The notes beneath the pieces are model-generated. The model was not told where the DNA came from and did no database searches. It was given only the letters and a program-made list of their open reading frames with translations. Positions 7,308-27,908 of a stretch of 64,000 bases of DNA are shown here, piece by piece; the first letter of the stretch is position 1; each line of letters begins with the position of its first letter. This DNA is from Cyclobacteriaceae bacterium. GTDB lineage: Bacteria; Bacteroidota; Bacteroidia; Cytophagales; Cyclobacteriaceae. A program made the position numbers and the translations under genes. The stretch lies in assembly GCA_019638255.1 (NCBI GenBank), contig JAHBUD010000002.1:164092-228091 (forward strand), given 5' to 3'.

Positions 7308-7323
7308 TATGACTAAAGTCATA
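7308..7323. promoter_or_regulatory. Perfect 6-4-6 palindrome TATGAC-TAAA-GTCATA upstream of the class II RNR gene
   Basis: Read directly. It is centred about 76 nt upstream of the ATG at 7392. The core TGAC-N4-GTCA also occurs at 34302-34313. Confidence 0.35.
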
Positions 7324-7391: not shown

Positions 7392-9242
7392 ATGAACCTT
7401 AACCAACAAGTACTCAGCGACCTAATCATCTACATGAAGTACGCCCGTTACCTGCCCGAACTAAAGCGCAGGGAAACGTGGGATGAAATTTGTGACCGGT
7501 ACCAGCACATGATGGTCGAGAAGTATCCTTTTCAACACGAAGAAATTATTGAGACCATGAAATGGGTACGACAGAAAAAAGTGTTACCCTCCATGCGCGC
7601 CATGCAGTTTGCCGGAACCGCCATTGCGCGGAACAACTCACGCATCTACAACTGTGCTTACCTTCCGGCAGACGATATCCGTGCATTTTCAGAAACAATG
7701 TTCCTGTTACTTGGCGGAACTGGCGTTGGGTACTCCGTACAATACCACCATGTTGAGAAACTCCCGCCCATTCACAAAGCTGAAAAACGAAGGAGATTTC
7801 TCATCGGTGATAGCCTGGAAGGCTGGGCCGATGCCATAAAAGTCTTACTCAAAGGTTATTTCGGCATCAGCGAATACATTCCGGAGTTTGACTACTCCGA
7901 CATTCGACCGAAAGGTGCACGCCTCGTAACAGCCGGTGGAAAAGCACCTGGCCCTGAACCGCTCAAAATATGTGTAGCGCACGTTCAGGCATTACTCGAC
8001 CGAAAAGAAAATGGCGAGAAACTCACACCCCTTGAATGTCACGACCTGATGTGCCACCTGGCCAATGCAGTGCTGGCAGGCGGAATCAGAAGGTCGGCTA
8101 TGATTTCACTCTTCTCGCATGGCGATGAAGAAATGCTCACCTGCAAGTACGGTAACTGGTGGGAGCTAAACGAACAACGTGGTCGCGCCAACAATTCAGT
8201 GGTGTTGCAACGGGATAACATCTCACAAACTGAATTTCTTGATCTCTGGAAAAAAATTGAACTCTCCGGTTCCGGTGAGCCGGGTTTCTATTTTACCAAT
8301 GACCTGGATTGGGGAACAAATCCGTGTTGCGAGATTGCACTTCGTCCATTCCAATTCTGCAACCTGTGCGAAGTAAACGTATCGGATGTGTATACACAGG
8401 ATGAACTTAATGCCCGTGCACGTGCTGCGGCTTATCTTGGCACGTTACAAGCGGGATTTACCGATTTTCACTACTTGCGTGAAATATGGAAAACCACTAC
8501 TGAGCAAGATGCCCTGATTGGCGTGGGCATGACAGGCATTGCCAGCGGTGCCGTTCAAAAACTGGATCTGAATGAAACCGCCCGGGAGGTTAAAAAAGTA
8601 AACCTTGAAGTTTCAGCCAAGATCGGGATACAGTTTGCTGCACGCACCACCACCATCAAACCTTCAGGCACTTCTTCGTTGGTGTTGGGCACATCATCGG
8701 GTATACATGCATGGCATAATGATTATTACATCAGGCGCTTACGCATTGGAAAGAATGAAGCCTTGTACGAATACCTGTGCATCGCTCATCCGGAGTTGTT
8801 GGAGGATGATCTGCTCAACAGCAAGCAGGCCATCATCTGTATTCCGCAAAAAGCACCCGAGGGCAGCATTCTGCGAACAGAACATGTTATGGATTTACTT
8901 GAGCGGATAAAAAAATTCAATGAAGAGTGGGTTCGAAAAGGCTTTCGCAGAGGAAGCAATGCCAACAATGTGTCGGCTACGGTATCCATTGAAGATGGTG
9001 ATTGGCAACGTGTGGGCGAATGGATGTGGGCAAACAAAGCATCCTACAATGGACTCAGTGTGTTGCCCTTCGATACGGGGAACTACAAACAAGCACCCTT
9101 CGAAGATATTACTAAAGAAAAATTCGTTGAACTCGAGAAGAGCCTGAAATCCATTGATCTCACAAATGTTTTCGAAACCGATGATGAAACCGATCATAAA
9201 GCTGAGGCCGCCTGTGCAGGTGGTGCATGTCAGGTTGTTTAA
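7392..9242 (+). CDS. nrdJ: Adenosylcobalamin-dependent class II ribonucleotide reductase, monomeric RTPR-like type
   Basis: 616 aa. Blocks collinear with Lactobacillus leichmannii RTPR as I recall it: ETWDE, IRPKGARLVTAGGKAPGPEPL, AGGIRRSA, RANNSV, GTNPCCEI...FCNL, TTIKPSGT. The C-terminal redox pair is CAGGACQVV. Confidence 0.85.
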   Translation: MNLNQQVLSDLIIYMKYARYLPELKRRETWDEICDRYQHMMVEKYPFQHEEIIETMKWVRQKKVLPSMRAMQFAGTAIARNNSRIYNCAYLPADDIRAFSETMFLLLGGTGVGYSVQYHHVEKLPPIHKAEKRRRFLIGDSLEGWADAIKVLLKGYFGISEYIPEFDYSDIRPKGARLVTAGGKAPGPEPLKICVAHVQALLDRKENGEKLTPLECHDLMCHLANAVLAGGIRRSAMISLFSHGDEEMLTCKYGNWWELNEQRGRANNSVVLQRDNISQTEFLDLWKKIELSGSGEPGFYFTNDLDWGTNPCCEIALRPFQFCNLCEVNVSDVYTQDELNARARAAAYLGTLQAGFTDFHYLREIWKTTTEQDALIGVGMTGIASGAVQKLDLNETAREVKKVNLEVSAKIGIQFAARTTTIKPSGTSSLVLGTSSGIHAWHNDYYIRRLRIGKNEALYEYLCIAHPELLEDDLLNSKQAIICIPQKAPEGSILRTEHVMDLLERIKKFNEEWVRKGFRRGSNANNVSATVSIEDGDWQRVGEWMWANKASYNGLSVLPFDTGNYKQAPFEDITKEKFVELEKSLKSIDLTNVFETDDETDHKAEAACAGGACQVV

Positions 9243-9275
9243 ACGAAACGAGTATGAATCTGATAGTTACTAGTC

Positions 9276-9299
9276 ATCGCCCCAAGTACTCGGGGCGAT
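9276..9299. terminator. 8-bp GC-rich hairpin after nrdJ
   Basis: ATCGCCCC-aagtactc-GGGGCGAT. Confidence 0.5.
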
Positions 9300-9323
9300 C
9301 CCTTTAAATGATTGAATCACGAG

Positions 9324-9365
9324 ATTCCGACTCAAGCCTGCCTGCTGGTCAGGCAGGGCCGGAAT
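9324..9365. terminator. Compound hairpin between convergent nrdJ and rnfA
   Basis: ATTCCG-actcaag-CCTGCCTG-ctggt-CAGGCAGG-gc-CGGAAT. Confidence 0.5.
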
Positions 9366-9414
9366 GACTTATGTAGTATGAAAGGATTATTGAGATGGCT
9401 CTGGTTAGAAAGCA

Positions 9415-9993
9415 TCAAACCAACCCGGCAAATCCCATAAACGCCATGGAAAGAATGCTGGCGGTGATTAACGCAGCTGGCACGCCTTTCATATACTCCG
9501 GTAAATCGGCACCATCGAGTTGCTCACGCAAACTGGAAAACAAAATGATCGCCAAGGTAAACCCTAACGCATTGGCGATGGCGAACACAACACTTTTTAT
9601 CAGGTTTAAATCCTGTTGCACTACCAGAATGGCCACCCCAAGGATAGCGCAGTTGGTTGTAATAAGCGGAAGATAAACACCCAATGCCTGGTATAAATCG
9701 GGGCTTACTTTTTTCATGATGATTTCAACAACCTGAACTAAAAATGCGATCACCAGGATATAGGTTATGGTTTGCATATACCCGATGTGGAAAGGAACCA
9801 GCAAATAGTGCTGGACCAGGTACGTAATGATGGTGGCGATGGTCATCACAAAAATAACTGCAGCCCCCATGCCTAATGCCGTTGAAGTATTTTTAGAAAC
9901 TCCCAGAAATGGGCAGATACCCAAAAATTTCGCCAGCACAATGTTGTTGATGAATATGGCCGATACAATAATGACGAGATAATCCATAGTCAT
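9415..9993 (-). CDS. rnfA: Rnf electron transport complex subunit A
   Basis: 192-aa polytopic protein of the RnfA/NqrE type (FINNIVLAKFLGICPFLGVS). It is the last gene of the rnf string. Confidence 0.9.
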   Translation of the reverse strand: MTMDYLVIIVSAIFINNIVLAKFLGICPFLGVSKNTSTALGMGAAVIFVMTIATIITYLVQHYLLVPFHIGYMQTITYILVIAFLVQVVEIIMKKVSPDLYQALGVYLPLITTNCAILGVAILVVQQDLNLIKSVVFAIANALGFTLAIILFSSLREQLDGADLPEYMKGVPAALITASILSMAFMGFAGLV

Positions 9994-9997
9994 TCAG

Positions 9998-10609
9998 TTA
10001 ACGTTTTATTCCAGCGCTTCGGTCTTTCAACCAATTCATCAATGCGATTAAAAAACCAAGTGAAATAAAGGCACCGGGTGCCAGGATAAACACCAACATG
10101 CCATCGCCTTCCATTAACCTGAATCCGAAAATGGAAAGGCTGCCCAACAGTTCGCGGATAGCGCCCAACAGCGTAAGGGCTAATGTAAAGCCAACGCCCA
10201 TGCCTAACCCATCCACTAAACTTGAAACCACTGTGTTTCGGGATGCAAAGGCCTCCGCCCTGCCCAACACAATACAGTTCACAACAATCAATGGAATAAA
10301 TAAACCAAGCTGTTCGTGTAAAGCCGGTGTATAGGCTTCCATTAACAACTGAACCATGGTAACAAAGGAAGCGATGATAACGATGAATGCCGGAATGCGA
10401 ACTTTATCAGGAATAAAATTTTTGATGAGTGAAACCACCAGGTTCGACATCACCAAGACAAAAACTGTAGCCACACCCATACCCAAACCATTGAATGCCG
10501 ATGAGGTAACACCCAGTGTTGGGCATAACCCCAGCAACAACACAAATACCGGGTTTTCCTTTACTAAACCTTTTATAAAATTTTCCTTATGACTCGTGTT
10601 ACTCATCAT
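9998..10609 (-). CDS. rnfE: Rnf electron transport complex subunit E
   Basis: 203-aa RnfE/NqrD-type protein (ENPVFVLLLGLCPTLGVT). Confidence 0.9.
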   Translation of the reverse strand: MMSNTSHKENFIKGLVKENPVFVLLLGLCPTLGVTSSAFNGLGMGVATVFVLVMSNLVVSLIKNFIPDKVRIPAFIVIIASFVTMVQLLMEAYTPALHEQLGLFIPLIVVNCIVLGRAEAFASRNTVVSSLVDGLGMGVGFTLALTLLGAIRELLGSLSIFGFRLMEGDGMLVFILAPGAFISLGFLIALMNWLKDRSAGIKR

Positions 10610-11180
10610 GTTTTACAGATTGAAAAGTTTCATAGGCCATTTGCACCGATTCGGAGAAGGCACGCGAACTGATGGTTGCACCGGTTATCGCATCCACTGC
10701 TCCCCCATCCTTCTTAACCTTAAGGTTTACCTTGCCGGGATTCTTTCCATAGTATTGATTAAGAAATGAAGGCAAAGTCATTTTTGATCCCAGTCCGGGA
10801 GTTTCCTTGTGCTCAAGAACTTGGATGCGGATAATGTTGCCAGCTTTGTCAAAACCAACCATCAGCCAGATGTCGCCACTATAACCCAAACCCGATTTTG
10901 TCTTTACCGCTGTTCCGATTCGCTTACCATTTCGCGTAGCAGGAAAAAATTCAAGGCTGTCTTTTCCATCCAATGTAACCACTTTATATTTTTCGGTTAC
11001 CGGATTATTATCATACCCTTCCACAACCGCCTCAATCGCTTTGAGCTGCCTCGCCATTTGTGCTTTGGCTATGGGTTCTTTGGTCCAATCAAAAACAAAA
11101 CCCAGTGACAGCGATCCTACAAAGGTGATTACCGCCAGGGTAACAATCAGATTGACAAATGATGATTTAGTTTTTGCCAT
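10599..11180 (-). CDS. rnfG: Rnf electron transport complex subunit G (FMN-binding)
   Basis: 193 aa with an N-terminal anchor and the covalent-FMN motif region DAITGATISSRA. Confidence 0.9.
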   Translation of the reverse strand: MAKTKSSFVNLIVTLAVITFVGSLSLGFVFDWTKEPIAKAQMARQLKAIEAVVEGYDNNPVTEKYKVVTLDGKDSLEFFPATRNGKRIGTAVKTKSGLGYSGDIWLMVGFDKAGNIIRIQVLEHKETPGLGSKMTLPSFLNQYYGKNPGKVNLKVKKDGGAVDAITGATISSRAFSESVQMAYETFQSVKHDE

Positions 11181-11181
11181 A

Positions 11182-12225
11182 CTACTTCGTTGAAGTCAAC
11201 TCTTTTTCAAGTTTTTCCTGATACGCTTTATGCCGTTGGGATTTAGATCCATAACGAGGTTGTTTCGCATACGAATTAATTATGGGCACAAAAGCATTCA
11301 TTATTAAAATAGCGAACGAAACGCCTTCCGGATAACTGCCGAATAAACGAATCACCACGGTTAGCACACCAATACCAACACCAAATACAATCATACCCCG
11401 ATGTGTAAAAGGTGATGTTACATAGTCGGTTGCCATAAATACAGCCCCTAACATGACGCCCCCTGTTAACAAATGAAACAATGGATTTGCAAAACGTGTG
11501 GGATCAACCAGCCAGAAAATCCCTGTCATCAAAGCAATTGTAATGAGCATAGAAACAGGGATATGCCAGGTGATAATTTTACGATAAAGCATGTAAATCA
11601 ATCCCAACAAAATCGCGAAGGCAGACATCTCCCCTAAACTTCCACCCTGAAGTCCAAAAAAGAAATCTGCATAGGAAGGCATTTGGTTCATCAGTTCAGG
11701 AACTGTATCACCAGCGCGGAGTCCATCTTTCAAAATGCCCAATGGCGTTGCGCTGGTGGTGGCATCTAACGACCATGTAGCACCCGCTTTAGGCCAGGAG
11801 GTCATCTCTACAGGAAACGACAATAACAAAAAGACCCGCCCGACAAGAGCAGGATTAAATGGATTATTTCCCAAGCCACCAAAACTCATTTTACCAATAC
11901 CGATAGCCACTGCACTGCCAATTAATATTATGTGCCAGGGTAAATTGGTTGGTACATTGAAGGCGAGTAACATTCCGGTGATGACGGCTGAGCCATCGTA
12001 AATGGAAGCCGGGCGTTTTAGCAGGTAGCGGGCAATCGAATATTCTATCACCACGCAGAAAAGTATGGCCAACAACGTTACGTATACTGCGCCTAAACCA
12101 AAATTATAAACAGAAAACACCAAAGCAGGAATCATAGCGATGATTACTCCGCGCATGATCTGTGGCACGGTTAAATCCGTATGAATATGCGGTGATGGTG
12201 AAACGGTGAGAAGTCCTGCACTCAT
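11182..12225 (-). CDS. rnfD: Rnf electron transport complex subunit D
   Basis: The ORF track gives 11182-12318. The internal ATG at 12223-12225 (MSAGLLTVSPSPHIH) forms an ATGA overlap with the rnfC stop, so it is the more likely start. Polytopic RnfD/NqrB type. Confidence 0.88.
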   Translation of the reverse strand: MSAGLLTVSPSPHIHTDLTVPQIMRGVIIAMIPALVFSVYNFGLGAVYVTLLAILFCVVIEYSIARYLLKRPASIYDGSAVITGMLLAFNVPTNLPWHIILIGSAVAIGIGKMSFGGLGNNPFNPALVGRVFLLLSFPVEMTSWPKAGATWSLDATTSATPLGILKDGLRAGDTVPELMNQMPSYADFFFGLQGGSLGEMSAFAILLGLIYMLYRKIITWHIPVSMLITIALMTGIFWLVDPTRFANPLFHLLTGGVMLGAVFMATDYVTSPFTHRGMIVFGVGIGVLTVVIRLFGSYPEGVSFAILIMNAFVPIINSYAKQPRYGSKSQRHKAYQEKLEKELTSTK

Positions 12226-13562
12226 ACGCTTTTCTGTTTTTTGAGCTGTGTTTTGCCTAATCGGATGTAATCCAGTATCGGGCGATTGGAAGGACAAACA
12301 AACGAACAGGATCCGCATTCAATACAATCCAGAATATGTTCCTCCTTAGCACGTTTATTATTTCCTTTTTTCGACATGATCAACAACCGGTATGGTTCAA
12401 GTCCCATCGGGCAGGCTTCAATACACTTTCCACAATGCACACAGTTATACACTTCAGATCGGCTTGCTTCATCTTTGGGGATAAGCAAAATACCTGATGT
12501 TCCTTTCGCTATGGGTACATCCAGATCGGCAATGGCTTTGCCCATCATGGGGCCACCACTAACAATCTTGCCGGTATCTTCCGGTACACCACCTGCAGCA
12601 ATCAGTAAATCGATAACCGGTGTACCAATCCGTACCAGAAAATTTGAAGGTTGTTTTACCGACTTACCGGTAACGGTGACTACCCTTTCGATGAGTGGTT
12701 TATTCTTTTGTACGGCCTCATAAACGGCATAGGTGGTTCCCACATTGTGAACGATAACCCCAACATCTGCCGGCAAACCACCCGAAGGTACTTCACGGTT
12801 CAGCAAGGCTTGAATCAATTGCTTCTCGCCCCCTTGAGGATAGTGTACTTCTAGCGCTTCTACACCTATGTGTTTTTCATTTTTCAATAGCTGTTGAAAA
12901 ATTTCAATGGCGTCTGCTTTATTATCTTCAATGCCAATAATGGCTTTCTGAACACCCAAAGCCTTCATCAGAATTTTTATACCAACAATAATTTCCTTTG
13001 GCTTCTCCAGCATCACGCGATGGTCAGCCGTGAGGTATGGTTCACACTCGACACCATTAATCAGTAAATGATCAATGTGTTTGCCCTCGGGTACACTTAG
13101 CTTAACATGTGATGGGAAAGCGGCACCACCCATTCCTACTACCCCAGCTTCCATTATGCGGGATACAATTTCTTTTGGGCTGAATTTAATTTCTTCAACA
13201 AGTGTATCCGTTCTGTCAATGGCCTCTTCCCAATCATCACCCTTTACACGGATATTAACAGCGGTGTGTTTAAACCCGGTACTGTCCATTACTTCTTCAA
13301 TCACACCGATACGACCCGAAACAGAGGAATGAATATTGGAGGAAACAAAGCCTTCATGGGTGGCAAGGATTTGCCCGGTTTTTACAATATCACCCCGCTG
13401 GACTACAATTTTTGCCGGTGCCCCGATATGCTGAATGATGGGTATGGTGACCATCTTAGGTAAAGACAATGGTGTAATGGCTACCTGTGCAGAAAGCTTG
13501 TTATCGTGGGGATGAATTCCTCCGGTTTTAAAGGTTTTATGCTTGTTTAGTCGCATCGCCAT
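12222..13562 (-). CDS. rnfC: Rnf electron transport complex subunit C (NADH-binding, 2x[4Fe-4S])
   Basis: 446 aa. It has two ferredoxin motifs, CVHCGKCIEACP and CIECGSCSFVCP, and the GMGGAAFP motif. Confidence 0.92.
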   Translation of the reverse strand: MAMRLNKHKTFKTGGIHPHDNKLSAQVAITPLSLPKMVTIPIIQHIGAPAKIVVQRGDIVKTGQILATHEGFVSSNIHSSVSGRIGVIEEVMDSTGFKHTAVNIRVKGDDWEEAIDRTDTLVEEIKFSPKEIVSRIMEAGVVGMGGAAFPSHVKLSVPEGKHIDHLLINGVECEPYLTADHRVMLEKPKEIIVGIKILMKALGVQKAIIGIEDNKADAIEIFQQLLKNEKHIGVEALEVHYPQGGEKQLIQALLNREVPSGGLPADVGVIVHNVGTTYAVYEAVQKNKPLIERVVTVTGKSVKQPSNFLVRIGTPVIDLLIAAGGVPEDTGKIVSGGPMMGKAIADLDVPIAKGTSGILLIPKDEASRSEVYNCVHCGKCIEACPMGLEPYRLLIMSKKGNNKRAKEEHILDCIECGSCSFVCPSNRPILDYIRLGKTQLKKQKSV

Positions 13563-14481
13563 TTTGTTGTTGGGCAGCCTGGGCTGCTAATTTTTCTTCT
13601 TCCTTTTTTTTACGTGCACGTTCTTCCAACCGAATTCTATGATCCGTAGCATGCTTGATTTTTTCATCGGGTACGTTAGCAGTAATGATGTTGCGCACAT
13701 CGCAGGTCTCCACACACTCCAGGCATAAGGTGCATTTCTCCGGATCAATAGCGGCCAGACTATTATTTATGGTAATAGCATCATACCGGCAAGCTTCGAA
13801 ACACTTCGCACAGCCGGAACATGCCACTGCACACTCTTTGCGTGCCGTACTGCCTTTCTCTTCATTGAGGCAAGCCACAAAAATGCGTTTGTTCTTTTTG
13901 CCTTTTGGCCAGAGTTCAAGAATATTTTTCGGACATTCCTTTACACAAGCATTGCAGGCTGTACAGTTATCTTCTATAACTACAGGCAGGCCAGTCTTCT
14001 CGTCCATGTACATGGCTTCGAAGTCGCACACATCAACACAATCGCCCATGCCCAGGCATCCGTAGGCGCAACCGGTATCACCACTGTAAAGGGTAGCGGC
14101 AATTTTACATGATTCCGCCCCATCATAGATGCTTGTTTTCTTGCGATGCTCAAATGAACCGGAGCAACGAACAACAGCAATGTAGGGATCGCGTTCTACC
14201 GCTGCGATGCCAAGAATTTCCGCCACTTGCTTCATCACCGCATTGCCGCCAACTGGACAGTGCAGCTCCTTTAAACTTTCGGCATCAACCACAGCCTTGG
14301 CAAAAGCCTTGCAACCGGGTTGTCCGCAACCTCCACAATTGGTGTTGGGTAATACATTTTCTACCGCACCAATACGCTCATCTTCTACCACCTGAAATTT
14401 TTGTGAAACGAGGTAGATGATGGCCGCTGCGAAAATTCCAAGCCCTGTTAAAATCAGTACGGTATTTAATAACACGGTCAT
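13537..14481 (-). CDS. rnfB: Rnf electron transport complex subunit B (polyferredoxin)
   Basis: 314 aa with an N-terminal anchor, CGGCGQPGC, and several CxxCxxCxxxC(P) motifs. Confidence 0.9.
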   Translation of the reverse strand: MTVLLNTVLILTGLGIFAAAIIYLVSQKFQVVEDERIGAVENVLPNTNCGGCGQPGCKAFAKAVVDAESLKELHCPVGGNAVMKQVAEILGIAAVERDPYIAVVRCSGSFEHRKKTSIYDGAESCKIAATLYSGDTGCAYGCLGMGDCVDVCDFEAMYMDEKTGLPVVIEDNCTACNACVKECPKNILELWPKGKKNKRIFVACLNEEKGSTARKECAVACSGCAKCFEACRYDAITINNSLAAIDPEKCTLCLECVETCDVRNIITANVPDEKIKHATDHRIRLEERARKKKEEEKLAAQAAQQQNGDATKQA

Positions 14482-14909
14482 CGCTTTAGGACTTCAAATT
14501 TGCAGGATTGATTAAAACGCTGGCGGATTAGATAGAGCATGCTGTAGTAGGGCACCAATACCAATACGGCCACAAGCCCGGCAACACCTTCATGAACATG
14601 GAAGGCCAGTGCCGTTATCATCGATGCCATAATCAATACGAAAGGTAAAGTATACATCCATGCTACCGCTGTAAAGCCTGCTGATGGTTTCATGCGTACC
14701 AGCACTTCATCACCAACCTGAAAGGTGTAGTCGGCACAAGGCACCTCCACCTCTCGTTGGGAAATATCGCGCAGCATGCATAAACTTTTATGGCACGATG
14801 AGCAACCGCCTGACCCAACCAACGCAATCTTCATCATGCCTTGGTTGAGTGAACTGATAAATCCCGGTTGCTCAATGTAGCTGGTCATACTATTAGGCTG
14901 TAGTTTCAA
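14478..14909 (-). CDS. rseC: RseC/MucC-family (SoxR-reducing-system) small membrane protein
   Basis: 143 aa. An N-terminal Cys cluster (GGCSSCHKSLC) is followed by two TM helices. The position directly upstream of rnfB is typical. An alternative start at 14888 (MTSYIEQPG) is possible. Confidence 0.7.
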   Translation of the reverse strand: MKLQPNSMTSYIEQPGFISSLNQGMMKIALVGSGGCSSCHKSLCMLRDISQREVEVPCADYTFQVGDEVLVRMKPSAGFTAVAWMYTLPFVLIMASMITALAFHVHEGVAGLVAVLVLVPYYSMLYLIRQRFNQSCKFEVLKR

Positions 14910-15954
14910 CTCCCATTCTCTTCCGCACTGGGTAATTGTTCAGCATCTGTAAACTGGTGCGAACAATTTCGCCCATGGTGTTGCACTTCAGAAAAGTGTC
15001 ATCACCGTAAAGTTCGGCTAATCCTTCGCGCAGCTGGTGTGTGTTCTCTATTGTCGAAAGCTCAACGTTTGCCATGGCATCCAGTAATGCCGTTAGCTGC
15101 ATCCCGGCTGCACGTACCCTGTTCAGCAGGCGCATGCGCTCCTCTTTCTGATATTGCAGCTCCAATACAACCGACATGGTTTTAAATCCCAGGTTTATGA
15201 TGGGACTATTCTCTTTAAAGAACTGCGGCATGTAAATGGTGTGGCTGCCCTCATAGCATTGCTGATCGAAATCAATAGCCCGAAGGCGGAAGTACAGCTC
15301 ATCAAAATCGGGTATAATCTCGACCACGAAGTTATCCTTGCGCATATCGCCCAATAATTGTACGAGGCAGCGCTCATTAAACTTTACAAACTCCTTGGCA
15401 ATACGAAGCGGATTGAAGGAATGATCCTCCTTAAGGTATTGATGAATAAAAGCATCGCCCGGTATGCCCTGAATATGCTCCTCGATAAACGTGTTGCCCG
15501 AGGTGAGGTAATTGATTTTGTTGGGTGACAGTTGGTGCTCCAATTCCATTCCATAGATGCGCGAAGCATCTGAACGCTTGATGTAGAAATAATCAAATAA
15601 ATCGTTAAGCTTGTTTACAATGCGTACGCGGAAAGGATGAGTGTTGGCATAAAGACAATAATCTACCCGATCGATGTATAAGTGATCAATCACTGAAGTA
15701 TCACCGGCAACTTTCAACTGTGCATAAACTTTTCGAAGAGCTTCGTGTAAATACGTCCGGTCTGATTCTGAATAAATCATGGTTTCCCAAAGTGTATCAC
15801 GACCTTGCTTATCAAACAGCGTGATGGCACCGCTTGATCGCAGTAAGTCTTGATAACTTATGGGCGCGTCAATTTCACGGTTTGTTGCAATCAGGTATTT
15901 TCTTAGCTGATCGCTAACTGGAAAGACGGGCTTTTTAAACCGGATGGCAGCCAT
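14893..15954 (-). CDS. Hypothetical protein with protein-kinase-like (RIO/Kdo-kinase-like) motif pattern
   Basis: 353-aa soluble ORF with no family I can name. It has YIKRSD, a hinge-like EEHIQGIPG, a catalytic-loop-like LGDMRKDNFVV, and a DFG-like AIDFDQ. Confidence 0.5.
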   Translation of the reverse strand: MAAIRFKKPVFPVSDQLRKYLIATNREIDAPISYQDLLRSSGAITLFDKQGRDTLWETMIYSESDRTYLHEALRKVYAQLKVAGDTSVIDHLYIDRVDYCLYANTHPFRVRIVNKLNDLFDYFYIKRSDASRIYGMELEHQLSPNKINYLTSGNTFIEEHIQGIPGDAFIHQYLKEDHSFNPLRIAKEFVKFNERCLVQLLGDMRKDNFVVEIIPDFDELYFRLRAIDFDQQCYEGSHTIYMPQFFKENSPIINLGFKTMSVVLELQYQKEERMRLLNRVRAAGMQLTALLDAMANVELSTIENTHQLREGLAELYGDDTFLKCNTMGEIVRTSLQMLNNYPVRKRMGVETTA

Positions 15955-15960
15955 AGTGCG

Positions 15961-16470
15961 CTACTGAAATTCAGATTTGATACTGGCCACCCATTTTTCA
16001 ATACGGCCTGCCGTCAGGTCTTTCTGATTGTCTTCATCGATCACAAGCCCTAAAAACTTTCCATCGTAAATACTTTTGGAGGCTTCAAAGTTGTAACCTT
16101 CCGTTGGCCACCAGCCCACCACCGTTACACCTTTGTCTTTAATGCGTTCATGGATAATACCCGGTGCATCAATAAAGGTGTCCGGATATCCATCGGCATC
16201 GCCCAGTCCAACATAGGCTATCTTTTTGCCGGCAAAATCAACATCGGCAAGCTCATCGATAAAGCTCTCCCAATCTTCCTGCAACTGGCCGATTTCCCAG
16301 GTAGGACATGCGAGAATCAGGTATGGGTAAGGTTGCATATCATCGGCTGTTGCCGAGTTTACGTTGTGCAACGCGGCTACATCTTCGCCACCGAGTTGCT
16401 TTTGAATTTCAGTAACTATACGTTCTGTGTTTCCTTCGGTAGAGCCATAAAAAATTCCAATTTTTGCCAT
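15961..16470 (-). CDS. fldA: Long-chain flavodoxin
   Basis: 169 aa with MAKIGIFYGSTEGNTE as the FMN phosphate loop, and a length typical of FldA. Confidence 0.9.
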   Translation of the reverse strand: MAKIGIFYGSTEGNTERIVTEIQKQLGGEDVAALHNVNSATADDMQPYPYLILACPTWEIGQLQEDWESFIDELADVDFAGKKIAYVGLGDADGYPDTFIDAPGIIHERIKDKGVTVVGWWPTEGYNFEASKSIYDGKFLGLVIDEDNQKDLTAGRIEKWVASIKSEFQ

Positions 16471-16509
16471 GATAATATCAATTAGGGGTTAATAATTATT
16501 TACTTCATT

Positions 16510-17556
16510 CTATTCCGCATGTTCATTCGGATCATGCAACTCACCGTGCTTCGGATGGTACTGCATAAATACTTCCGACCGCATGAGTATATCTACATAC
16601 TGTGCCCGCTTATAGGCAAACGGGTCAATCATATTTTCTTTGGATAACGCACCCTTAAAATCGTTGATGGAGGTGTATCCCTTTTTGTCCATCCATTGCT
16701 CCAGGTCATCCAGCATGGTTTCAAGCTGACTGATACCACGCTTATAGATAGCACTTACTACCTGAACGGCATCGGCTCCGGCCAACAACATTTTTACCAC
16801 ATCCGCACCGGAAAAAATTCCCGTGTTGCTGATGATGCTGGCATCAATCTTACTATACAGTAATCCGGCAAACCGTAAAGCCAGTCGGTTATCGTTTTCA
16901 CTACTGAAGTTATAGGGGAAATGATGCCCTTCCTTTTCAATATCAATATCGGGCTGGAACAAGCGGTTGAACAACACAAAACCTGAAGCACCAAGCTTAT
17001 CCATTTTTGAAATTACCGAAAGCGAATTGGTGTAAAACGGACTAAGCTTTACAATAACCGGAATACGAATGGCATGCTTTACTGCACGAAGGGTATCCAG
17101 TTGCCGCTGCACAATCGCTGCGCCATCGGCATCAAAGTCGAGTTCGCTGGCATAAAAATTCAATTCCAAAGCATCGATACCCGTTTCGGACATCTTCTGT
17201 GCATACTCCACCCACGTATCTTCATAAACACAATTCAAACTTCCGATTAAAGGAATGGAGATGGCATTTCGTGCCTGGCGCAATTTCAGCAAATGCTCAG
17301 AAGGACCACCATGTTTTAATTTTGGAAAGAATGATTCATGCTCAGCATCCCAGTTGCTGTATTTTTCATGAACATGTTCCATGTCGAGCGATTCGAGTTG
17401 AATCTGTTCCTCAAACAACGATTTATAAACGATGGCAGCAGCGCCTGCTTTTTCAAGTTTCACCAGGTTGTCCAGATCACTTACCAGGTTGCTTGCTCCA
17501 ACTACAATTGGGTTTTTTAAGGTTAACCCGCAGTATCTTGTTCTTAAGTCGGCCAT
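16510..17556 (-). CDS. Dihydroorotate dehydrogenase-like TIM-barrel flavoprotein (not a bona fide PyrD)
   Basis: 348 aa with a PyrD class 1-like N-terminus (GLTLKNPIVVGAS) and a C-terminal FMN-phosphate region (GIFSGADVVKMLLAGADAVQV). The catalytic N-x-S-C-P-N block is replaced by ELNFYASE. Confidence 0.75.
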   Translation of the reverse strand: MADLRTRYCGLTLKNPIVVGASNLVSDLDNLVKLEKAGAAAIVYKSLFEEQIQLESLDMEHVHEKYSNWDAEHESFFPKLKHGGPSEHLLKLRQARNAISIPLIGSLNCVYEDTWVEYAQKMSETGIDALELNFYASELDFDADGAAIVQRQLDTLRAVKHAIRIPVIVKLSPFYTNSLSVISKMDKLGASGFVLFNRLFQPDIDIEKEGHHFPYNFSSENDNRLALRFAGLLYSKIDASIISNTGIFSGADVVKMLLAGADAVQVVSAIYKRGISQLETMLDDLEQWMDKKGYTSINDFKGALSKENMIDPFAYKRAQYVDILMRSEVFMQYHPKHGELHDPNEHAE

Positions 17557-17567
17557 GGCTATTGCAT

Positions 17568-20500
17568 TTAAGAGGTTACTTGTTCAGATAAATGTAGAAT
17601 GTCCTTTGCGCGTTGCTCATTATCCCTTTTGGCCAGTTCGGTCAATCGTACGGCTTCTTCGGGATCAGAGAGGTTAAGTGTTTTGTACCGGATTTCTGCA
17701 TCCAGATAATCGTTGAAGTTAACGGCATCTTCTGTGGTAGGAACATCCCACGTAAACGGATTCTGACCATCGGCACGCAGATCAGGATTGAACCTGTACA
17801 TTGGCCAGTAACCACACTTCACGGCTTTCTCCGATTGCTTTTTAGCAAACTTCATGTCGTAGCCGTGCGCAATACAAGGTGAGTATGCGATTATAATAGA
17901 AGGACCATTATGTTTTTCAGCCTCCACAAAAGCAAGCGCTGTTTTTTCCCGATCCATGCCCATGTTAACTACCGCCACATAAGCATTGCCATAGGTAGTC
18001 ATCATGAGTCCGAGATTTTTCTTACCCATTTTTTTACCGTTGGATGCAAACTTGGCCACTGCACCACGAGGGGTTGCCTTGGAAGCCTGACCACCGGTGT
18101 TGGAATACACTTCGGTATCGAGCACGAGCAGGTTTACATTTCGGTTGGAGGCCATTACGTGATCAAGCCCGCTAAAGCCGATGTCGTAGGCCCAGCCATC
18201 GCCACCAAAAATCCATACACTCTTATCTACAAAATAATCCTGTAACTCAATTACTTTTTCGAGCAATGCCCTTTCTTCTTTACCAACAGTTTTTAATTCT
18301 GCTGCCAGCAAAGGCTTCAGGGCATCGGCATGGTCCTTTGCTTCATTCGTGTGTTCATTGAACAAGGCCAATGCCTTTTCAAGCGCTGACTTAACCTCAG
18401 GAGTTTTTACTTTCGGCAGTAAAGCTTCTGCATTTGTTTTGAGCTGTTTGCGGTTTGCATCTACTGCGAGCCGGATGCCAAAACCATATTCAGCATTGTC
18501 TTCAAATAATGAGTTGGCCCATGCAGGTCCTCTTCCCCTTTTATCTTTTGTATACGGTGTTAACGGGAAGGTTCCACCATAAATAGAAGTACAACCTGTA
18601 GCGTTGGCGATAATCATACGGTCGCCAAAAAGTTGTGTAGCCAGGTGGATGTAGGGTACTTCACCACAACCGGAACAGCTTGGAGGATATTCGAGATAGG
18701 GTTCAGCAATGTAAGGCTCTTGCACAAAAGGAAGTTTGTCAATCCAGGTGGCAGGATTGCCCGGCACGCCACGGTATTCAAGTTTTTTTGTACCGGTAGG
18801 CACCGCGCCATTCAACGGCATCAGCGATACCGGAATGTTATCACCTTTTAATCGTAGAATCGGATCCACCACCAGCCGTGCGAAATCATCGGAGCCAGCC
18901 GGAATCAATTCGGATATTTCAGCATACTTTTCAGACTCGGCAGGAACAGGCACCTCAATAATATTATCACAGGTTACATCAATAGCCTTCCAGTTCATCT
19001 CAATAATCTCACGGCCCTTCCGGGCGAACTGTTCTTCAATGTGCTCCTTAATCGTGGTAATTGCCTGTGCCTCCGGCAGTACACCCGACACTTTGAAAAA
19101 GGCTGTCTGCATTACAGAGTTGATTCTTCCTCCAAGGCCAACACTCTTGGCAATTTTGGAAGCATCAATGGCGTATACCTTAATTTTTTTCTTCCAGATT
19201 GTTTCCTGCATATCGCGGGTGAACAACCTGAAAATATTTTCAGGCTTTTGGCTGCTGTTGATCAGGAACGTACCCCCTTCGGTAATGCCCTCTAGAATAT
19301 CGTACTGGCCAATGTATTGTGGACGGTGCAAGGCAACAAAATCAACCTTATTCAACAAGTACTCCGATTGAATTGGATTTTTACCAAAACGCAAATGCGA
19401 AACAGTATACCCGCCTGATTTATTCGAATCATACTGGAAATAGCCTTGCACAAACAGATCGGTGCTATCGCCAATAATTTTAATGGCATTTTTATTGGCA
19501 CTCACCGTACCGTCTGAACCATAGCCCCAGAACTTGCAGCGTACAATACCTTCTTGTTCGGTATCAATCTCTTCTTTTACCGGTATGGATTTATGTGTCA
19601 CGTCATCGTTGATGCCTACGGTAAAACCATGCCAGCCATTATTATCGAGATGATCGAATACGGCTTTCACCAGCGATGGCGTAAATTCCTTTGAGGATAA
19701 ACCATATCGGCCTCCGATAATCTGAATGTCGGGCCGACTGCGAAGTGCTGCCACCACATCTAAAAAGAGGGGATCGCCTAACGCACCAGGTTCTTTCGTG
19801 CGATCAAGCACGGCTATTTTTTTAACGCCCTCGGGTATAACGGCAAGAAAATCTTCCAATGCAAATGGCCTGTACAGGCGAACCTTCACCGCGCCTACTT
19901 TTTCTCCATTGCGTGTTAGATAATTTATGGTCTCTTCTATGGTTTCAGTAGCTGATCCCATTGAAATCAGAATCTTTGTAGCGTTGGGGTCGCCTACATA
20001 TTCGTAAAGGTTGTAAGTCCTTCCGGTTTTCTTTGCGAACAATTCCATGTACTTCTTCACAACACCCGGGCACGCATCGTAATACTTATTCACCGTTTCT
20101 CGGCCTTGAAAATACACATCGGGGTTTTGCGCACCGACTTTGCATACCGGTGCTTCCGGCTTCAATGCGTGCTTACGAAATTCCTCAACATATTTCATGT
20201 CGAGCATGGATTTTAGATCACTGTAATCCAGCGGAATAATTTTTTGTATGGAATGCGAGGTGCGGAAGCCATCGAAAAAATGCAAGAAAGGAATTCTGGA
20301 TTCCAGCGTTGAAAGGTGTGCAATGGTTGCCATGTCCTGCGCTTCCTGCACATTACCCGATGATAACAAGGCAAAACCGGTTCCGCGTGTTGCCATTACA
20401 TCGGAGTGATCGCCAAATATCGATAGGGCCTGACAGGCCAATGAACGTGCCGAAACGTGAAATACTGTAGGAATCATTTCACCGGCAATCTTGAACATAT

Positions 20501-20798
20501 TGGGCACCATGAGCATCAGTCCTTGCGATGCCGTAAACGTGGTAGCCATAGCCCCACCCGACAGGGCACCATGAATGGCCCCGGCCGCTCCGGCTTCCGA
20601 TTGCATCTGCACAACATCTACAGATTCACCGAAAATATTTTTTCTGCCCTCTGCCGACCAGGCATCTGCCCGTTCGCCCATATCCGATGAAGGTGTAATC
20701 GGGTAAATGGCAGCCACTTCACTAAAGGCGTAGGCAATGTTGGCTACTGCCGTATTGCCATCGGTATTGATATACGCTGATTTTTTCTCTTTGGCCAT
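17568..20798 (-). CDS. nifJ: Pyruvate:ferredoxin/flavodoxin oxidoreductase (NifJ-type single-chain PFOR) lacking the ferredoxin domain
   Basis: 1076 aa with IYPITPSS, a TPP-binding GGDGWAYDIG...NTGGQ block and proximal-cluster cysteines (CSGCGE, ATGCTS, YSPCIAHG). No CxxCxxCxxxCP motif occurs anywhere in the protein. Confidence 0.9.
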   Translation of the reverse strand: MAKEKKSAYINTDGNTAVANIAYAFSEVAAIYPITPSSDMGERADAWSAEGRKNIFGESVDVVQMQSEAGAAGAIHGALSGGAMATTFTASQGLMLMVPNMFKIAGEMIPTVFHVSARSLACQALSIFGDHSDVMATRGTGFALLSSGNVQEAQDMATIAHLSTLESRIPFLHFFDGFRTSHSIQKIIPLDYSDLKSMLDMKYVEEFRKHALKPEAPVCKVGAQNPDVYFQGRETVNKYYDACPGVVKKYMELFAKKTGRTYNLYEYVGDPNATKILISMGSATETIEETINYLTRNGEKVGAVKVRLYRPFALEDFLAVIPEGVKKIAVLDRTKEPGALGDPLFLDVVAALRSRPDIQIIGGRYGLSSKEFTPSLVKAVFDHLDNNGWHGFTVGINDDVTHKSIPVKEEIDTEQEGIVRCKFWGYGSDGTVSANKNAIKIIGDSTDLFVQGYFQYDSNKSGGYTVSHLRFGKNPIQSEYLLNKVDFVALHRPQYIGQYDILEGITEGGTFLINSSQKPENIFRLFTRDMQETIWKKKIKVYAIDASKIAKSVGLGGRINSVMQTAFFKVSGVLPEAQAITTIKEHIEEQFARKGREIIEMNWKAIDVTCDNIIEVPVPAESEKYAEISELIPAGSDDFARLVVDPILRLKGDNIPVSLMPLNGAVPTGTKKLEYRGVPGNPATWIDKLPFVQEPYIAEPYLEYPPSCSGCGEVPYIHLATQLFGDRMIIANATGCTSIYGGTFPLTPYTKDKRGRGPAWANSLFEDNAEYGFGIRLAVDANRKQLKTNAEALLPKVKTPEVKSALEKALALFNEHTNEAKDHADALKPLLAAELKTVGKEERALLEKVIELQDYFVDKSVWIFGGDGWAYDIGFSGLDHVMASNRNVNLLVLDTEVYSNTGGQASKATPRGAVAKFASNGKKMGKKNLGLMMTTYGNAYVAVVNMGMDREKTALAFVEAEKHNGPSIIIAYSPCIAHGYDMKFAKKQSEKAVKCGYWPMYRFNPDLRADGQNPFTWDVPTTEDAVNFNDYLDAEIRYKTLNLSDPEEAVRLTELAKRDNEQRAKDILHLSEQVTS

Positions 20799-20871
20799 GA
20801 TGATAAAAGTTTAACGGGAGGAAGTTATCCCAATCGGTCACGCGGTTAGCTGTCGCTCATCACATGGAATG

Positions 20872-20885
20872 CTGATTTATATCAG
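20872..20885. promoter_or_regulatory. Perfect palindrome CTGAT-TTAT-ATCAG in the divergent nifJ / crp-fnr promoter region
   Basis: Read directly as aatgCTGATttatATCAGgtt. The centre is about 80 nt upstream of the nifJ ATG and about 100 nt upstream of the regulator ATG. Confidence 0.5.
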
Positions 20886-20978
20886 GTTGATGTAAAAACA
20901 TGTCGCTTCCACGCCTGATTGCAGAAAAGCAAGTTGAGTTTACCCAAGTAATCCCTAAATTTCAGTAATCATCGCCAC

Positions 20979-21575
20979 ATGATACCGGATAAAATATTGA
21001 CGCAATACCATGCACGCCTTGTACGTTTGCGCAAAGACCAGGTGCTTTTTGAGGAAGGCTCCAATGCCACTGACTATTTTCAGGTAGCAGAAGGCGAAGT
21101 GCGCATGTACATCCTCAATCATGAAGGGCAGGAATTTACCCAAGGTATTTTTCATGCCGGTGAGAGTTTTGGAGAACCTCCCTTGTTTGGAAATTTTGCT
21201 TACCCCAGCACTGCCGTTGCACTCACACCAGGGAGCGTTTGGCGCTTACCGAAAGTTGAATTTTTTGAGTTGCTTAAAAATAACTTCGACATCCACTTAA
21301 AATTGAACCACGTGCTTTGCAACCGGCTTCAATATAAGTCGATGATTCTCACCGAAATTTCATCGCACACACCGGAGCACCGATTAACCACCATATTAAA
21401 ATACCTCAAATCGAAAATTGCCCCTGAGTCGGAAACGGAGAAAATGATCATTCCCTATACCCGGCAACAATTGGCTGACATGACCAGCCTGCGGGTGGAG
21501 ACGGTTATACGCACCATTAAGCGCATGGAAAAGGAAGGCAAGGTAGAGTTGGAAGGGCATAAGATTTTGTTTTGA
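20979..21575 (+). CDS. Crp/Fnr-family transcriptional regulator (no N-terminal Cys cluster)
   Basis: 198 aa with a cNMP-binding-like beta-roll (GESFGEPPLF) and a C-terminal HTH. The recognition helix SLRVETVIRTIKRM matches the FNR-type E--xR pattern. Confidence 0.85.
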   Translation: MIPDKILTQYHARLVRLRKDQVLFEEGSNATDYFQVAEGEVRMYILNHEGQEFTQGIFHAGESFGEPPLFGNFAYPSTAVALTPGSVWRLPKVEFFELLKNNFDIHLKLNHVLCNRLQYKSMILTEISSHTPEHRLTTILKYLKSKIAPESETEKMIIPYTRQQLADMTSLRVETVIRTIKRMEKEGKVELEGHKILF

Positions 21576-21671
21576 CATAAAAACTCGTTTGAAGGGATAC
21601 CCACTATAGCACTTTTCCCAAGCCACTCCTGATGTTTCGGAAAAGGCATTCTTTGTGATTGTTTCTATTTA

Positions 21672-21699
21672 ATGAGACACCTCGTTTCTCGGTGTAACA
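21672..21699 (+). repeat. Copy A of a ~27-nt conserved stem-loop motif ATGAGRCACCTCGT..CTCGGTGTRACA
   Basis: ATGAGACACCTCGTTTCTCGGTGTAACA. It matches 57286-57312 at 24 of 28 aligned columns. Confidence 0.5.
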
Positions 21700-21796
21700 T
21701 TACTTTCAACGGATACTCAGTAAGCTTCTGTTAGGAGGTAAAATCAAATTTTTATTAACTTGGGATTTATGAAGGCAGAAACCTACAATATAGACT

Positions 21797-22006
21797 TTGG
21801 AATTCAGACAAATACTTGAATTAGTACGTCAATTACCTAAAAAAGAGAAAATAAGGTTGTCTAGGGAACTTGAAAAAGAGGTAATTGATCTAAAACTAAC
21901 ATCACTTCTTAAAGCATTTAACACTGACGAGCTTGATGAATCAACAATTAATCAGGAAGTGGAACAGGTAAGGGCAGAACTTTATGCCAAGCAAAAAGCC
22001 AAGTAA
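21797..22006 (+). CDS. Small antitoxin-like protein (addiction-module component type), TTG start
   Basis: 69-aa charged helical ORF that overlaps the downstream PIN gene by 23 nt. The context is AT-rich. Confidence 0.55.
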   Translation: MEFRQILELVRQLPKKEKIRLSRELEKEVIDLKLTSLLKAFNTDELDESTINQEVEQVRAELYAKQKAK

Positions 22007-22340
22007 AATCATTATTGATACAAATATCTGGATCAGTTTTCTGATTGGCAAAGAACTTCAATTTCTGAAAGATATTATTGTAAGCGAGGAAATAAAAATT
22101 GTTCTAACAGATCAATTAATCACCGAACCGAAACTCGTTACCTCCAGAAAAAAACTGCAGAAATATTTTGATCAAGATAAGGTGGCTGATCTAATCTCAC
22201 TTCTTGATATTATAGCATTAAAGATTCGAATCAAAAAAATCCCCTCCGTTTGTCGTGATCCGAAAGACGATTTTTTACTAGCATTATCAAAAGAAAGCAA
22301 AGCAAACTTCTTAGTGACCGGAGACAAAGGATCTACTTGA
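21984..22340 (+). CDS. PIN-domain toxin; the C-terminus appears truncated by a 1-nt frameshift
   Basis: IIIDTNIWISFLIG and LVTGDK are PIN hallmarks. The expected tail DLLDFQNFGNAQIVNVVKFRQLF is encoded in the +1 frame at 22330-22401. Confidence 0.7.
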   Translation: MPSKKPSKIIIDTNIWISFLIGKELQFLKDIIVSEEIKIVLTDQLITEPKLVTSRKKLQKYFDQDKVADLISLLDIIALKIRIKKIPSVCRDPKDDFLLALSKESKANFLVTGDKGST

Positions 22341-22427
22341 TTTTCAAAACTTTGGAAATGCACAAATAGTAAATGTTGTGAAATTTAGACAATTATTTTA
22401 GAGGTTCTGAATTTACAGTGCTAATCT

Positions 22428-26611: not shown

Positions 26612-26694
26612 GGAGGTGACAATTAAGAACGCAAGGTATCAATAAGGATAATTTCAAACAGCATTAATAGCGCAAATCATGTAACTATTAAACA

Positions 26695-27129: not shown

Positions 27130-27131
27130 CG

Positions 27132-27899: not shown

Positions 27900-27908
27900 G
27901 ATGTTGAT

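Follow-up and report, generated by a model that had tools for sequence, protein, structure and literature searches.

A putative pyruvate-to-flavodoxin-to-Rnf operon in a Cyclobacteriaceae bacterium, headed by a NifJ-type oxidoreductase without domain V

Pyruvate:ferredoxin/flavodoxin oxidoreductase (PFOR) and the Rnf complex are central to anaerobic energy conservation and have usually been studied in strict anaerobes. In Prevotella and Bacteroides the route starts from a full-length PFOR with three clusters, whose gene lies elsewhere in the genome, and uses a ferredoxin as carrier. The Rnf complex of Prevotella oxidises PFOR-derived ferredoxin and reduces NAD during fermentation (PMC10542786). 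Here we describe a locus of a Cyclobacteriaceae bacterium, carried on a stretch of 64,000 nt (contig JAHBUD010000002.1, positions 164,092 to 228,091; the window in what follows), in which eleven genes on the minus strand fill positions 9415-20798 and encode PFOR, a dihydroorotate dehydrogenase-like (DHOD-like) flavoprotein, a flavodoxin, a kinase-like protein, RseC and RnfBCDGEA. PFOR and Rnf occur here in respiring, N2O-reducing Cytophagales, which are common in soil and wastewater. The NifJ/NifF system of Klebsiella resembles it in pairing a single-chain PFOR of the NifJ type with a dedicated flavodoxin gene, and differs in that NifJ keeps domain V, the sink is nitrogenase, and the operon has no DHOD-like, kinase or Rnf gene. 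With the Prevotella/Bacteroides route the locus shares a low-potential source, a carrier, Rnf as the sink and the rseC-rnfBCDGEA layout, whereas source, carrier and sink in one string, a PFOR without domain V, a flavodoxin as carrier and two extra proteins set it apart (PMC10542786). A first-pass annotation of this DNA had proposed electron flow from PFOR through flavodoxin to Rnf and NAD; a route from PFOR through ferredoxin or flavodoxin to Rnf and NAD is indeed established in anaerobic Bacteroidota (PMC10542786). The pathway logic and the standard rnf operon are already known, and what appears to be undescribed in the literature that we searched is the NifJ without domain V, its fixed association with flavodoxin and a kinase resembling phosphatidylinositol 3-kinase (PI3K) in Cytophagales, the breadth of the pairing of nifJ with the DHOD-like gene, and a common Crp/Fnr box regulon with clade II nos genes.

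We favour, with moderate confidence, the reading that this is a Crp/Fnr-box-controlled operon in which a module of PFOR, DHOD-like protein, flavodoxin and kinase-like protein has been fused to the standard Bacteroidota rseC-rnfBCDGEA module. Such a pyruvate-to-flavodoxin-to-Rnf operon is probably co-transcribed. Specifically, a Crp/Fnr-type regulon (including clade II nos, Usp and Cu-ATPase genes) would switch on one transcript, the trimmed PFOR would oxidise pyruvate, and electrons would exit from the exposed proximal [4Fe-4S] cluster to a flavin carrier, the flavodoxin, either directly or via the DHOD-like protein with its flavin mononucleotide (FMN). Rnf would then oxidise the reduced flavodoxin, reduce NAD+ and export Na+ or H+, the NADH would feed a respiratory chain ending in N2O or low oxygen, and the kinase-like protein may belong to this regulon in a regulatory or accessory role. 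The oxidation of pyruvate by PFOR has a potential near -500 mV, the hydroquinone couple of flavodoxin one near -420 to -450 mV and NAD+ one of -320 mV, and Rnf stores the difference as an ion gradient.

The eleven open reading frames (ORFs), all on the minus strand as had been annotated, lie at 17568-20798 (PFOR), 16510-17556 (DHOD-like), 15961-16470 (flavodoxin), 14893-15954 (kinase-like), 14478-14909 (rseC), 13537-14481 (rnfB), 12222-13562 (rnfC), 11182-12318 (rnfD), 10599-11180 (rnfG), 9998-10609 (rnfE) and 9415-9993 (rnfA), and their intergenic gaps never exceed 39 nt. The first three gaps were reported exactly (11 nt between PFOR and the DHOD-like gene, 39 nt from there to flavodoxin, 6 nt from flavodoxin to the kinase-like gene), and the ATGA junction of rnfC and rnfD can be read in the sequence ('gcgtATGAgtg' at about 12225-12222). 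The remaining junctions had all been taken for overlaps. This holds for rseC/rnfB (4 nt), rnfB/rnfC (26 nt) and rnfG/rnfE (11 nt), but rnfD and rnfG are spaced by 1 nt and rnfE and rnfA by 4 nt. The junction between the kinase-like gene and rseC is a 17-nt overlap if the TTG at 14909 is used and a 4-nt gap if RseC starts at the ATG at 14888, which is the more likely of the two. Tight packing of this kind is compatible with a single transcript. Every terminator-like match within the string falls inside coding sequence. Downstream, where hairpins had been noted at 9276-9365, we find two stem-loops at 9276-9364 (minus strand, fold energy -49.9 kcal/mol, z = -2.68) between the convergent rnfA and a gene resembling class II ribonucleotide reductase (RNR), likely a bidirectional terminator. 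A sigma-70 scan returned 26 sites against 26.2 expected, with a scan model that does not cover Bacteroidota promoters. Rfam at E <= 1 gave no riboswitch or other RNA family over 9000-22500, and consequently no leader of the FMN or thiamine pyrophosphate (TPP) riboswitch type.

The string begins with the PFOR gene. Its 1076-aa product (17568-20798, minus strand) is a pyruvate:ferredoxin/flavodoxin oxidoreductase of the NifJ type that matches TIGR02176 in two stretches (1485.6 bits, cut-off 911.35), with the Pfam domains POR_N, PFOR_II, POR, EKR and TPP_enzyme_C, so that domains I, II, III, IV and VI are present; no Fer4 was found in the Pfam scan. In the alignment to the PFOR of Moorella thermoacetica (6cin), residue 687 of the query corresponds to residue 683 of the chain and residue 692 to residue 793, so about 110 residues are gone. 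A three-way alignment with the NifJ proteins of Methylovirgula and Phenylobacterium places both of their CxxCxxCxxxCP motifs within a gap of about 110-125 residues; each of these two proteins has two such motifs and the window PFOR has none. Outside the gap it is about 60% identical to three-cluster PFORs. The predicted enzyme has lost precisely domain V, the ferredoxin module with two [4Fe-4S] clusters, and would keep the proximal cluster alone, whose cysteines are retained (C708xxC711). The translation also reads 'GGDGWAYDIG...NTGGQ' (the GDG...N motif for TPP), 'ATGCTS' and 'SPCIAHG'. Complete PFOR ORFs in related Cytophagales loci measure 1068-1108 codons from stop to stop, against 1195-1234 aa elsewhere, and the orthologues in related genomes each align as a single high-scoring segment pair with 72-91% identity. 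The loss is common to every complete orthologue found in related Cytophagales, and because all of them share this length and single-segment alignment it is no assembly artefact. The retained CxxC and TPP motifs, together with the high identity of the orthologues, indicate an enzyme that is probably functional.

The PFOR had been treated as canonical in the first-pass annotation. It has no domain V and keeps one cluster, so arguing electron exit from it by established function does not simply apply. We found no description in the literature searched of a NifJ without domain V, nor of the eleven-gene operon; the one related account is that of GltD-like and DHOD-like genes beside PFOR in Propionibacterium (PMC7650540). 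A parallel is the 2-oxoacid:ferredoxin oxidoreductase of Sulfolobus tokodaii, a single-cluster enzyme without domain V that passes electrons directly to an external carrier (PMC5020499). Both have one [4Fe-4S] cluster per catalytic unit, and the window enzyme may likewise serve an external carrier directly; the Sulfolobus type, however, is a two-subunit (alpha-beta)2 enzyme of another lineage, unlike the fused NifJ-type chain with an excised domain V (PMC5020499). With its single Fe-S cluster, a PFOR of the NifJ type such as this one offers a natural experiment on electron exit and on what sets the limits of oxygen and iron dependence.

The DHOD-like protein (16510-17556, minus strand) is an FMN TIM-barrel protein of the NF005741/PRK07565 family (372.8 bits, cut-off 303). 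Models for true DHOD score at most 97 bits against cut-offs of about 270. In the alignment with DHOD B of Lactococcus lactis, the active-site stretch 'ELNISCPN' reads 'ELNFYASE' in the window protein; 'SCPN' has become 'YASE', and the catalytic cysteine and the neighbouring Asn are missing, whereas the FMN site still has its Lys and Asn motifs (VKLSP, LFNR). In nine aligned family members from four phyla the catalytic residue is missing in all, and the K of 'VKLSP' and the N of 'FNR' are invariant. A dihydroorotate dehydrogenase can be rejected on both grounds, the absent catalytic Cys and the scores far below the cut-offs of the true models.

This gene is no incidental member of the string; it is a neighbour of nifJ across phyla. 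Methylovirgula, Phenylobacterium, Xanthobacter and an 889-kb metagenomic contig (L095) have the order GltD-like gene, nifJ, DHOD-like gene, where the first product is an NAD(P)-binding Fe-S flavoprotein (GltD/NfnB-like) and nifJ encodes 1195-1203 aa with Fer4 present. In Nostoc, and in three further contigs of which two are cyanobacterial by gene content, nifJ is followed by the DHOD-like gene, and in a short Logan contig the ORF upstream of the latter is a PFOR C-terminus. The gene was not beside PFOR in the records of Acaryochloris, Stanieria, Methylocella, Parabacteroides and Bacteroides finegoldii. In Propionibacterium a GltD-like and a DHOD-like gene have been reported to be transcribed together with PFOR and to be co-regulated with it (McCubbin et al., PMC7650540). 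Since the family recurs directly downstream of nifJ in Cyanobacteria, Alphaproteobacteria and, reportedly, Propionibacterium, the DHOD-like protein is, by these neighbourhoods, a conserved and widespread partner of PFOR across phyla. The triads of Propionibacterium (PMC7650540), Methylovirgula, Phenylobacterium and Xanthobacter resemble the window in that a PRK07565 gene without the catalytic Cys follows nifJ, and differ in that a full-length PFOR is preceded by a GltD-like gene, where the Cytophagales have instead a flavodoxin, the kinase-like gene and sometimes Rnf. This suggests a core of nifJ and DHOD-like gene with interchangeable sinks: a GltD-like NAD(P)+ reductase, a hydrogenase, or flavodoxin with Rnf. 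The protein is widely annotated and uncharacterised, and the nifJ neighbourhood makes its role directly testable.

Two of the records without the pair, L086 and L097, are listed in PLSDB as 'plasmids' of Parabacteroides distasonis and Bacteroides finegoldii. There the DHOD-like gene adjoins a gene of the YggS family, and with serS, glnS and folC on board both are probably chromosomal fragments. On contig L095 (742-12127) the triad is followed by a cluster for a [NiFe]-hydrogenase resembling group 3, comprising a Fer4 protein, a cNMP-binding protein, a NAD_binding_1/DHODB_Fe-S_bind protein, the small and large subunits and HycI, which suggests a pyruvate-to-H2 or pyruvate-to-NAD(P)H module built on the same core.

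Could the DHOD-like protein simply stand in for domain V? As its sole replacement it has to be rejected, for the pair is also found with full-length PFORs that contain Fer4; the association with nifJ is older than the loss of domain V, and an explanation as a simple substitute fails. A broader version, which we offer as speculative and rather doubt, is that a flavin relay of DHOD-like protein plus flavodoxin replaces domain V, saving iron and possibly giving more oxygen tolerance, with the PI3K-like kinase in control and the nifJ-DHOD-like core, present in at least four phyla, carrying bolted-on sinks. The whole set could also be an iron-sparing or oxygen-tolerant replacement, not an energy module, that keeps pyruvate oxidation going under iron scarcity or oxygen. 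We think this quite unlikely. It is true that two [4Fe-4S] clusters per subunit have been lost, leaving one instead of three, that the flavodoxin of the cassette is free of iron, and that the nifJ-DHOD-like pair occurs in oxygen-exposed lineages (Cyanobacteria, Methylovirgula, Xanthobacter, Phenylobacterium); induction of flavodoxin by iron limitation is also reported for Bacteroidota (PMC10434189). The operator, however, is of the Crp/Fnr type and common to nos and Usp genes, and no Fur-type box turned up, though no search aimed at Fur boxes was made. Moreover, Rnf is very rich in iron, RnfB and RnfC having many Fer4 domains, and the saving of iron would be compatible with the two-module operon that we favour rather than exclusive of it.

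The flavodoxin (169 aa, 15961-16470, minus strand) is of the long-chain FldA type, matching TIGR01752 (flav_long) over residues 3-169 of 169 with 222.4 bits (cut-off 146.75), and also Pfam Flavodoxin_1. The membrane protein of the RseC/MucC family (14478-14888, minus strand; Pfam RseC_MucC, 75.4 bits) is the usual first gene product of Bacteroidota rnf operons. It is followed, all on the minus strand, by RnfB of the poly-ferredoxin type (314 aa, 13537-14481; TIGR01944, 108.1 bits, cut-off 68.7; Pfam FeS and several Fer4), RnfC (12222-13562; TIGR01945, 550.8 bits, cut-off 245.95), RnfD starting at the ATGA junction (11182-12225; TIGR01946, 377.4 bits, cut-off 207), RnfG (10599-11180; TIGR01947, 153.1 bits, cut-off 102), RnfE (9998-10609; TIGR01948, 269.7 bits, cut-off 213.4) and RnfA (9415-9993; TIGR01943, 279.3 bits, cut-off 229.3). 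The Rnf set is complete, with six subunits in one gene string, each above its NCBIfam cut-off, and the gene identities assigned at first pass are correct by Pfam and NCBIfam.

Another way to read the same set of genes, which we regard as improbable, is that Rnf runs in reverse, so that NADH and the ion gradient, with PFOR in parallel, fill a low-potential flavodoxin pool. Under oxygen limitation such a pool would serve radical-SAM or other activases, the reduction of a redox sensor as with Rsx/RseC and SoxR in Escherichia coli, or pyruvate synthesis. In aerobic diazotrophs Rnf does run from NADH to ferredoxin or flavodoxin, and rsxABCDGE of E. coli, with rseC, reduces SoxR; RseC is encoded in the present string too. 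The host is a respiring one with clade II NosZ, and complex I genes lie beside the cassette in related loci, so that NADH would be plentiful and an extra coupling site less needed. Nevertheless, the PFOR of the same operon would already give reduced flavodoxin at about -500 mV, which makes a second, energy-consuming source less economical, and there is no obvious flavodoxin-consuming enzyme within the string. In the anaerobic Bacteroidota that have been studied the direction is from ferredoxin to NAD (PMC10542786).

In order to see how far the string holds together, we have used 80 Cytophagales loci listed in one scan of species-representative genomes (Cyclobacteriaceae, Flammeovirgaceae, Roseivirgaceae, Ohtaekwangia, Chryseolinea and Flexithrix dorotheae), scoring synteny by tblastn of the eleven proteins and counting state changes on a neighbour-joining tree of the kinase-like protein. 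Of 77 usable loci, 67 have the DHOD-like and flavodoxin genes ahead of the kinase-like gene (absent in 6, unscorable in 4), and PFOR heads this cassette wherever the contig extends far enough. The Rnf module behaves differently. As rseC-rnfBCDGEA it follows the kinase-like gene directly in 34 loci; in 2 a GH97 insertion of 2.2 kb intervenes, and another 34 lack it at this place. Its attachment changes state at least nine times on the tree. Flexithrix dorotheae DSM 6795 (L073), for one, carries the four-gene cassette with no rnf beside it. In the 34 linked loci RnfB starts 413-613 nt past the end of the kinase-like gene, leaving no room for a spacer. The kinase-like gene with rseC-rnf and no PFOR cassette is found in L021 and probably L020, and the kinase-like gene alone in L067, Zunongwangia and a 6.7-Mb genome of Bacteroidota. 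Because cassette and Rnf show separate tiers of synteny, the eleven-gene string is a fusion of two modules that recurs but is labile in evolution, with the kinase-like gene at the seam. Of the self-contained module proposed at first pass, the PFOR-DHOD-like-flavodoxin-kinase cassette is conserved and the link to Rnf, attached in only about half of the loci, is not; contiguity of the full string in related Bacteroidota is partial, and to that extent counts against the original proposal.

This lability is what one would expect if the two units were independent neighbours, the cassette supplying reduced flavodoxin generally and RseC-Rnf being a separate housekeeping complex for redox balancing, their adjacency due to frequent rearrangement. 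In 34 loci the units are joined, in 2 they lie close together and in 34 Rnf is absent, with nine or more changes of state; a 3' fragment of rnfA survives as a scar in L008; a GH97 gene stands between the units in L023 and L024; where Rnf is lacking, the cassette gives way to convergent nuoLMN, to korAB-like or to unrelated genes; and L020 and L021 have the kinase-like gene alone in front of rseC-rnfBCDGEA. We nevertheless consider independence unlikely. Linked units meet at a junction too short to hold a promoter or terminator (in the window a gap of 4 nt or else an overlap), many lineages show this linkage, and reduced flavodoxin is the natural substrate of Rnf. The Crp/Fnr box precedes whichever gene is first, implying one promoter for the genes downstream.

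Some of these loci deserve a closer description. The fragment at L008:11148-11294 encodes 49 aa that are 92% identical to the C-terminus of RnfA, right after the kinase-like gene and with rseC to rnfE missing; it looks like a deletion scar, that is, a secondary loss of Rnf from the string. The gene of the GH97 glycoside hydrolase lies at L023:11081-13225, and at the same position in L024, splitting the kinase-like gene from rseC-rnf. Loci without Rnf often end at convergent redox genes and otherwise at unrelated ones. The redox genes are of two kinds, those for a KorAB-like 2-oxoacid:ferredoxin oxidoreductase of two subunits (615 + 348 aa) and those for the nuoL/M/N end of complex I, and are found in L054 (11131-14021), L040, L047 and L080, and in L013 (11189-16014) and L049.

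The operator upstream of the string is a strict TGAYN4RTCA box of the Crp/Fnr type, CTGATATAAATCAG, at 20872-20885, 87 nt upstream of the PFOR ATG. It had been described as a perfect palindrome, which is right for its 5-nt arms (CTGAT-ATAA-ATCAG) and not for the spacer. A strict box of this kind lies between -71 and -101 in 51 of the 57 related loci that have upstream sequence; at a background of 0.013 per 90 nt, chance alone would give less than one such locus. When the kinase-like gene is first, the box is found before it, at -88 in L021 and -87 in L020; the lone kinase-like gene of L067 has it at -86. The box tracks the first gene of the operon, even in truncated operons. No box was present upstream of the kinase-like gene in Flavobacteriaceae.

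The divergent Crp/Fnr gene that had been placed upstream of the string is there, at 20979-21575 (plus strand), and encodes a 198-aa regulator with Pfam cNMP_binding and HTH_Crp_2. The CRP, FixK and Fnr models match it weakly (Fnr with 42 bits, cut-off 228). It has a single Cys, and no FNR Cys cluster motif was found in the protein. A classical oxygen-sensing FNR can be rejected as its identity, the N-terminal Cys cluster being absent. Only in L001 and L002, the two closest genomes, is the divergent arrangement conserved.

The protein at the seam (353 aa, 14893-15954, minus strand) has a protein-kinase-like fold, nearest to the PI3K/PI4K catalytic domain by AlphaFold2 (AF2) modelling and Foldseek. 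It is 100% identical to a hypothetical protein from a metagenome-assembled genome of Cyclobacteriaceae, which places the window in the Cytophagales. It matches no family in Pfam (E <= 10) or NCBIfam, and nothing in PDB by single sequence or profile (E <= 10). It has more than 8000 relatives by a word-indexed search, 559 clusters at 50% identity by an exhaustive one, and the named members are Cytophagales and Flavobacteriaceae. An AF2 model made with 30 close homologues reached a pLDDT of 56 and was replaced by one from a 64-sequence alignment spanning 33-86% identity, with pLDDT 89.2 and pTM 0.88. The first Foldseek match of this model against PDB is the PI3K Vps34 (E 2e-5, probability 1.0, TMq 0.38-0.42); dozens of protein kinase or pseudokinase domains come after it, as does Helicobacter pylori CtkA. 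There are 34 PDB matches at E <= 1e-3, nearly all of them protein or lipid kinase or pseudokinase domains, with probabilities mostly of 0.9-1.0, yet TM-scores of only 0.2-0.42. Model and matches back the kinase fold that had been suggested from the sequence. The motifs FY[IV]K, GDMRxxN and IDFDQQ are invariant, and so are K126, D203, N208 and D228 across the 64 sequences, down to 33% identity. In the model, K126 lies on a beta-strand before a helix with conserved Glu residues (the beta3 position), GDMRxxN follows a long helix, like the kinase catalytic loop after alpha-E, and IDFD follows a beta-hairpin, like the DFG motif. By analogy the four residues would be the beta3 Lys, the Asp and Asn of the catalytic loop and the DFG-type Asp, and the modelled protein looks catalytically competent. 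With PI3K/PI4K and atypical kinases it shares the bilobal protein-kinase-like fold, the beta3 Lys, a GD-x4-N loop comparable to GDRHxxN and an IDFD comparable to IDFG, whereas sequence homology is not detectable, TM-scores against them reach only 0.25-0.42 and a distinct N-terminal region of about 100 aa is present in the window protein. It is a member of an unnamed, strongly conserved family of kinase-like proteins of Bacteroidota, which gains a regulon context here.

Other names attached to this family are without support from Pfam, NCBIfam or the fold, and we have rejected them: UniRef calls several Flavobacteriaceae homologues 'RNA ligase' (among P0301, P0303, P0329, P0371 and P0383), and one JGI homologue is named 'glycerol-3-phosphate cytidylyltransferase-like'. 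An accessory specific to PFOR was also considered and rejected, since the gene stands alone in Zunongwangia and in another Bacteroidota genome and heads rseC-rnf without a PFOR cassette in L020 and L021.

A number of points weigh against the operon as we read it. Rnf adjacency is missing in 34 of 70 scored genomes with at least nine changes, so the PFOR cassette of half of them functions with no rnf beside it. In Flavobacteriaceae and one other Bacteroidota genome the kinase-like gene stands by itself, which makes its link to PFOR clade-specific, and the DHOD-like partner accompanies full-length PFORs too. Rnf is reversible and in aerobes often runs from NADH to ferredoxin or flavodoxin. As the Fe-S site of the FNR type is missing, oxygen sensing by the regulator is not supported. 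Finally, internal promoters may lie within coding sequence.

The box is not confined to this operon. The window contains 17 matches against 4.4 +/- 2.1 expected, a number reached by none of 100 shuffles, and the intergenic ones often come as tandem pairs 22-23 nt apart. This enrichment points to a sizeable regulon. The clade II N2O reductase cluster annotated nearby is confirmed by the Sec-dependent (clade II) NosZ at 31070-33046 (TIGR04246, 934 bits, cut-off 625). Boxes of the same type, whose sharing with the nos cluster had been suggested, stand at 34175, 34198 and 34302 (span 34175-34313), before the cytochrome c/fasciclin/nosZ cluster. Others are found at 37882 and 37904 (37882-37915), ahead of a tandem-Usp gene with a Cu-type P-type ATPase gene after it, and at 48755 and 48777 (48755-48788), between YceI and an RND efflux operon; single ones lie at 7310-7321, between DUF456 and the gene resembling class II RNR, and at 54892-54903, before the gene of a Bacteroidota EF-G2. 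The shared box ties carbon oxidation (PFOR/Rnf) to N2O respiration (nos), and this bears on predicting N2O-sink behaviour.

The genes next to these boxes can be described briefly. In the nos cluster (25409-34095, minus strand) genes for a cytochrome c and a fasciclin-domain protein lie upstream of nosZ, and NosL, NosD, an ABC ATPase and a CopD-like protein are encoded as well; two ORFs of the cluster, of 195 aa (30376-30963) and 400 aa (25409-26611), are without a family match. The gene at 7392-9242 (plus strand), convergent with rnfA and with a Crp/Fnr box upstream, encodes a 616-aa protein resembling adenosylcobalamin-dependent ribonucleotide reductase that scores 245.8 with TIGR02505, below the cut-off of 340, and is shorter than the 724-position model. 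The gene at 55058-57184 (plus strand) encodes an EF-G2 paralogue of the Bacteroidota type (NF058620, 1040 bits, cut-off 1000). In Bacteroides thetaiotaomicron EF-G2 is under the control of a Crp-family regulator during carbon limitation and, given the box before the gene in the window, the boxes may report energy or carbon status rather than oxygen.

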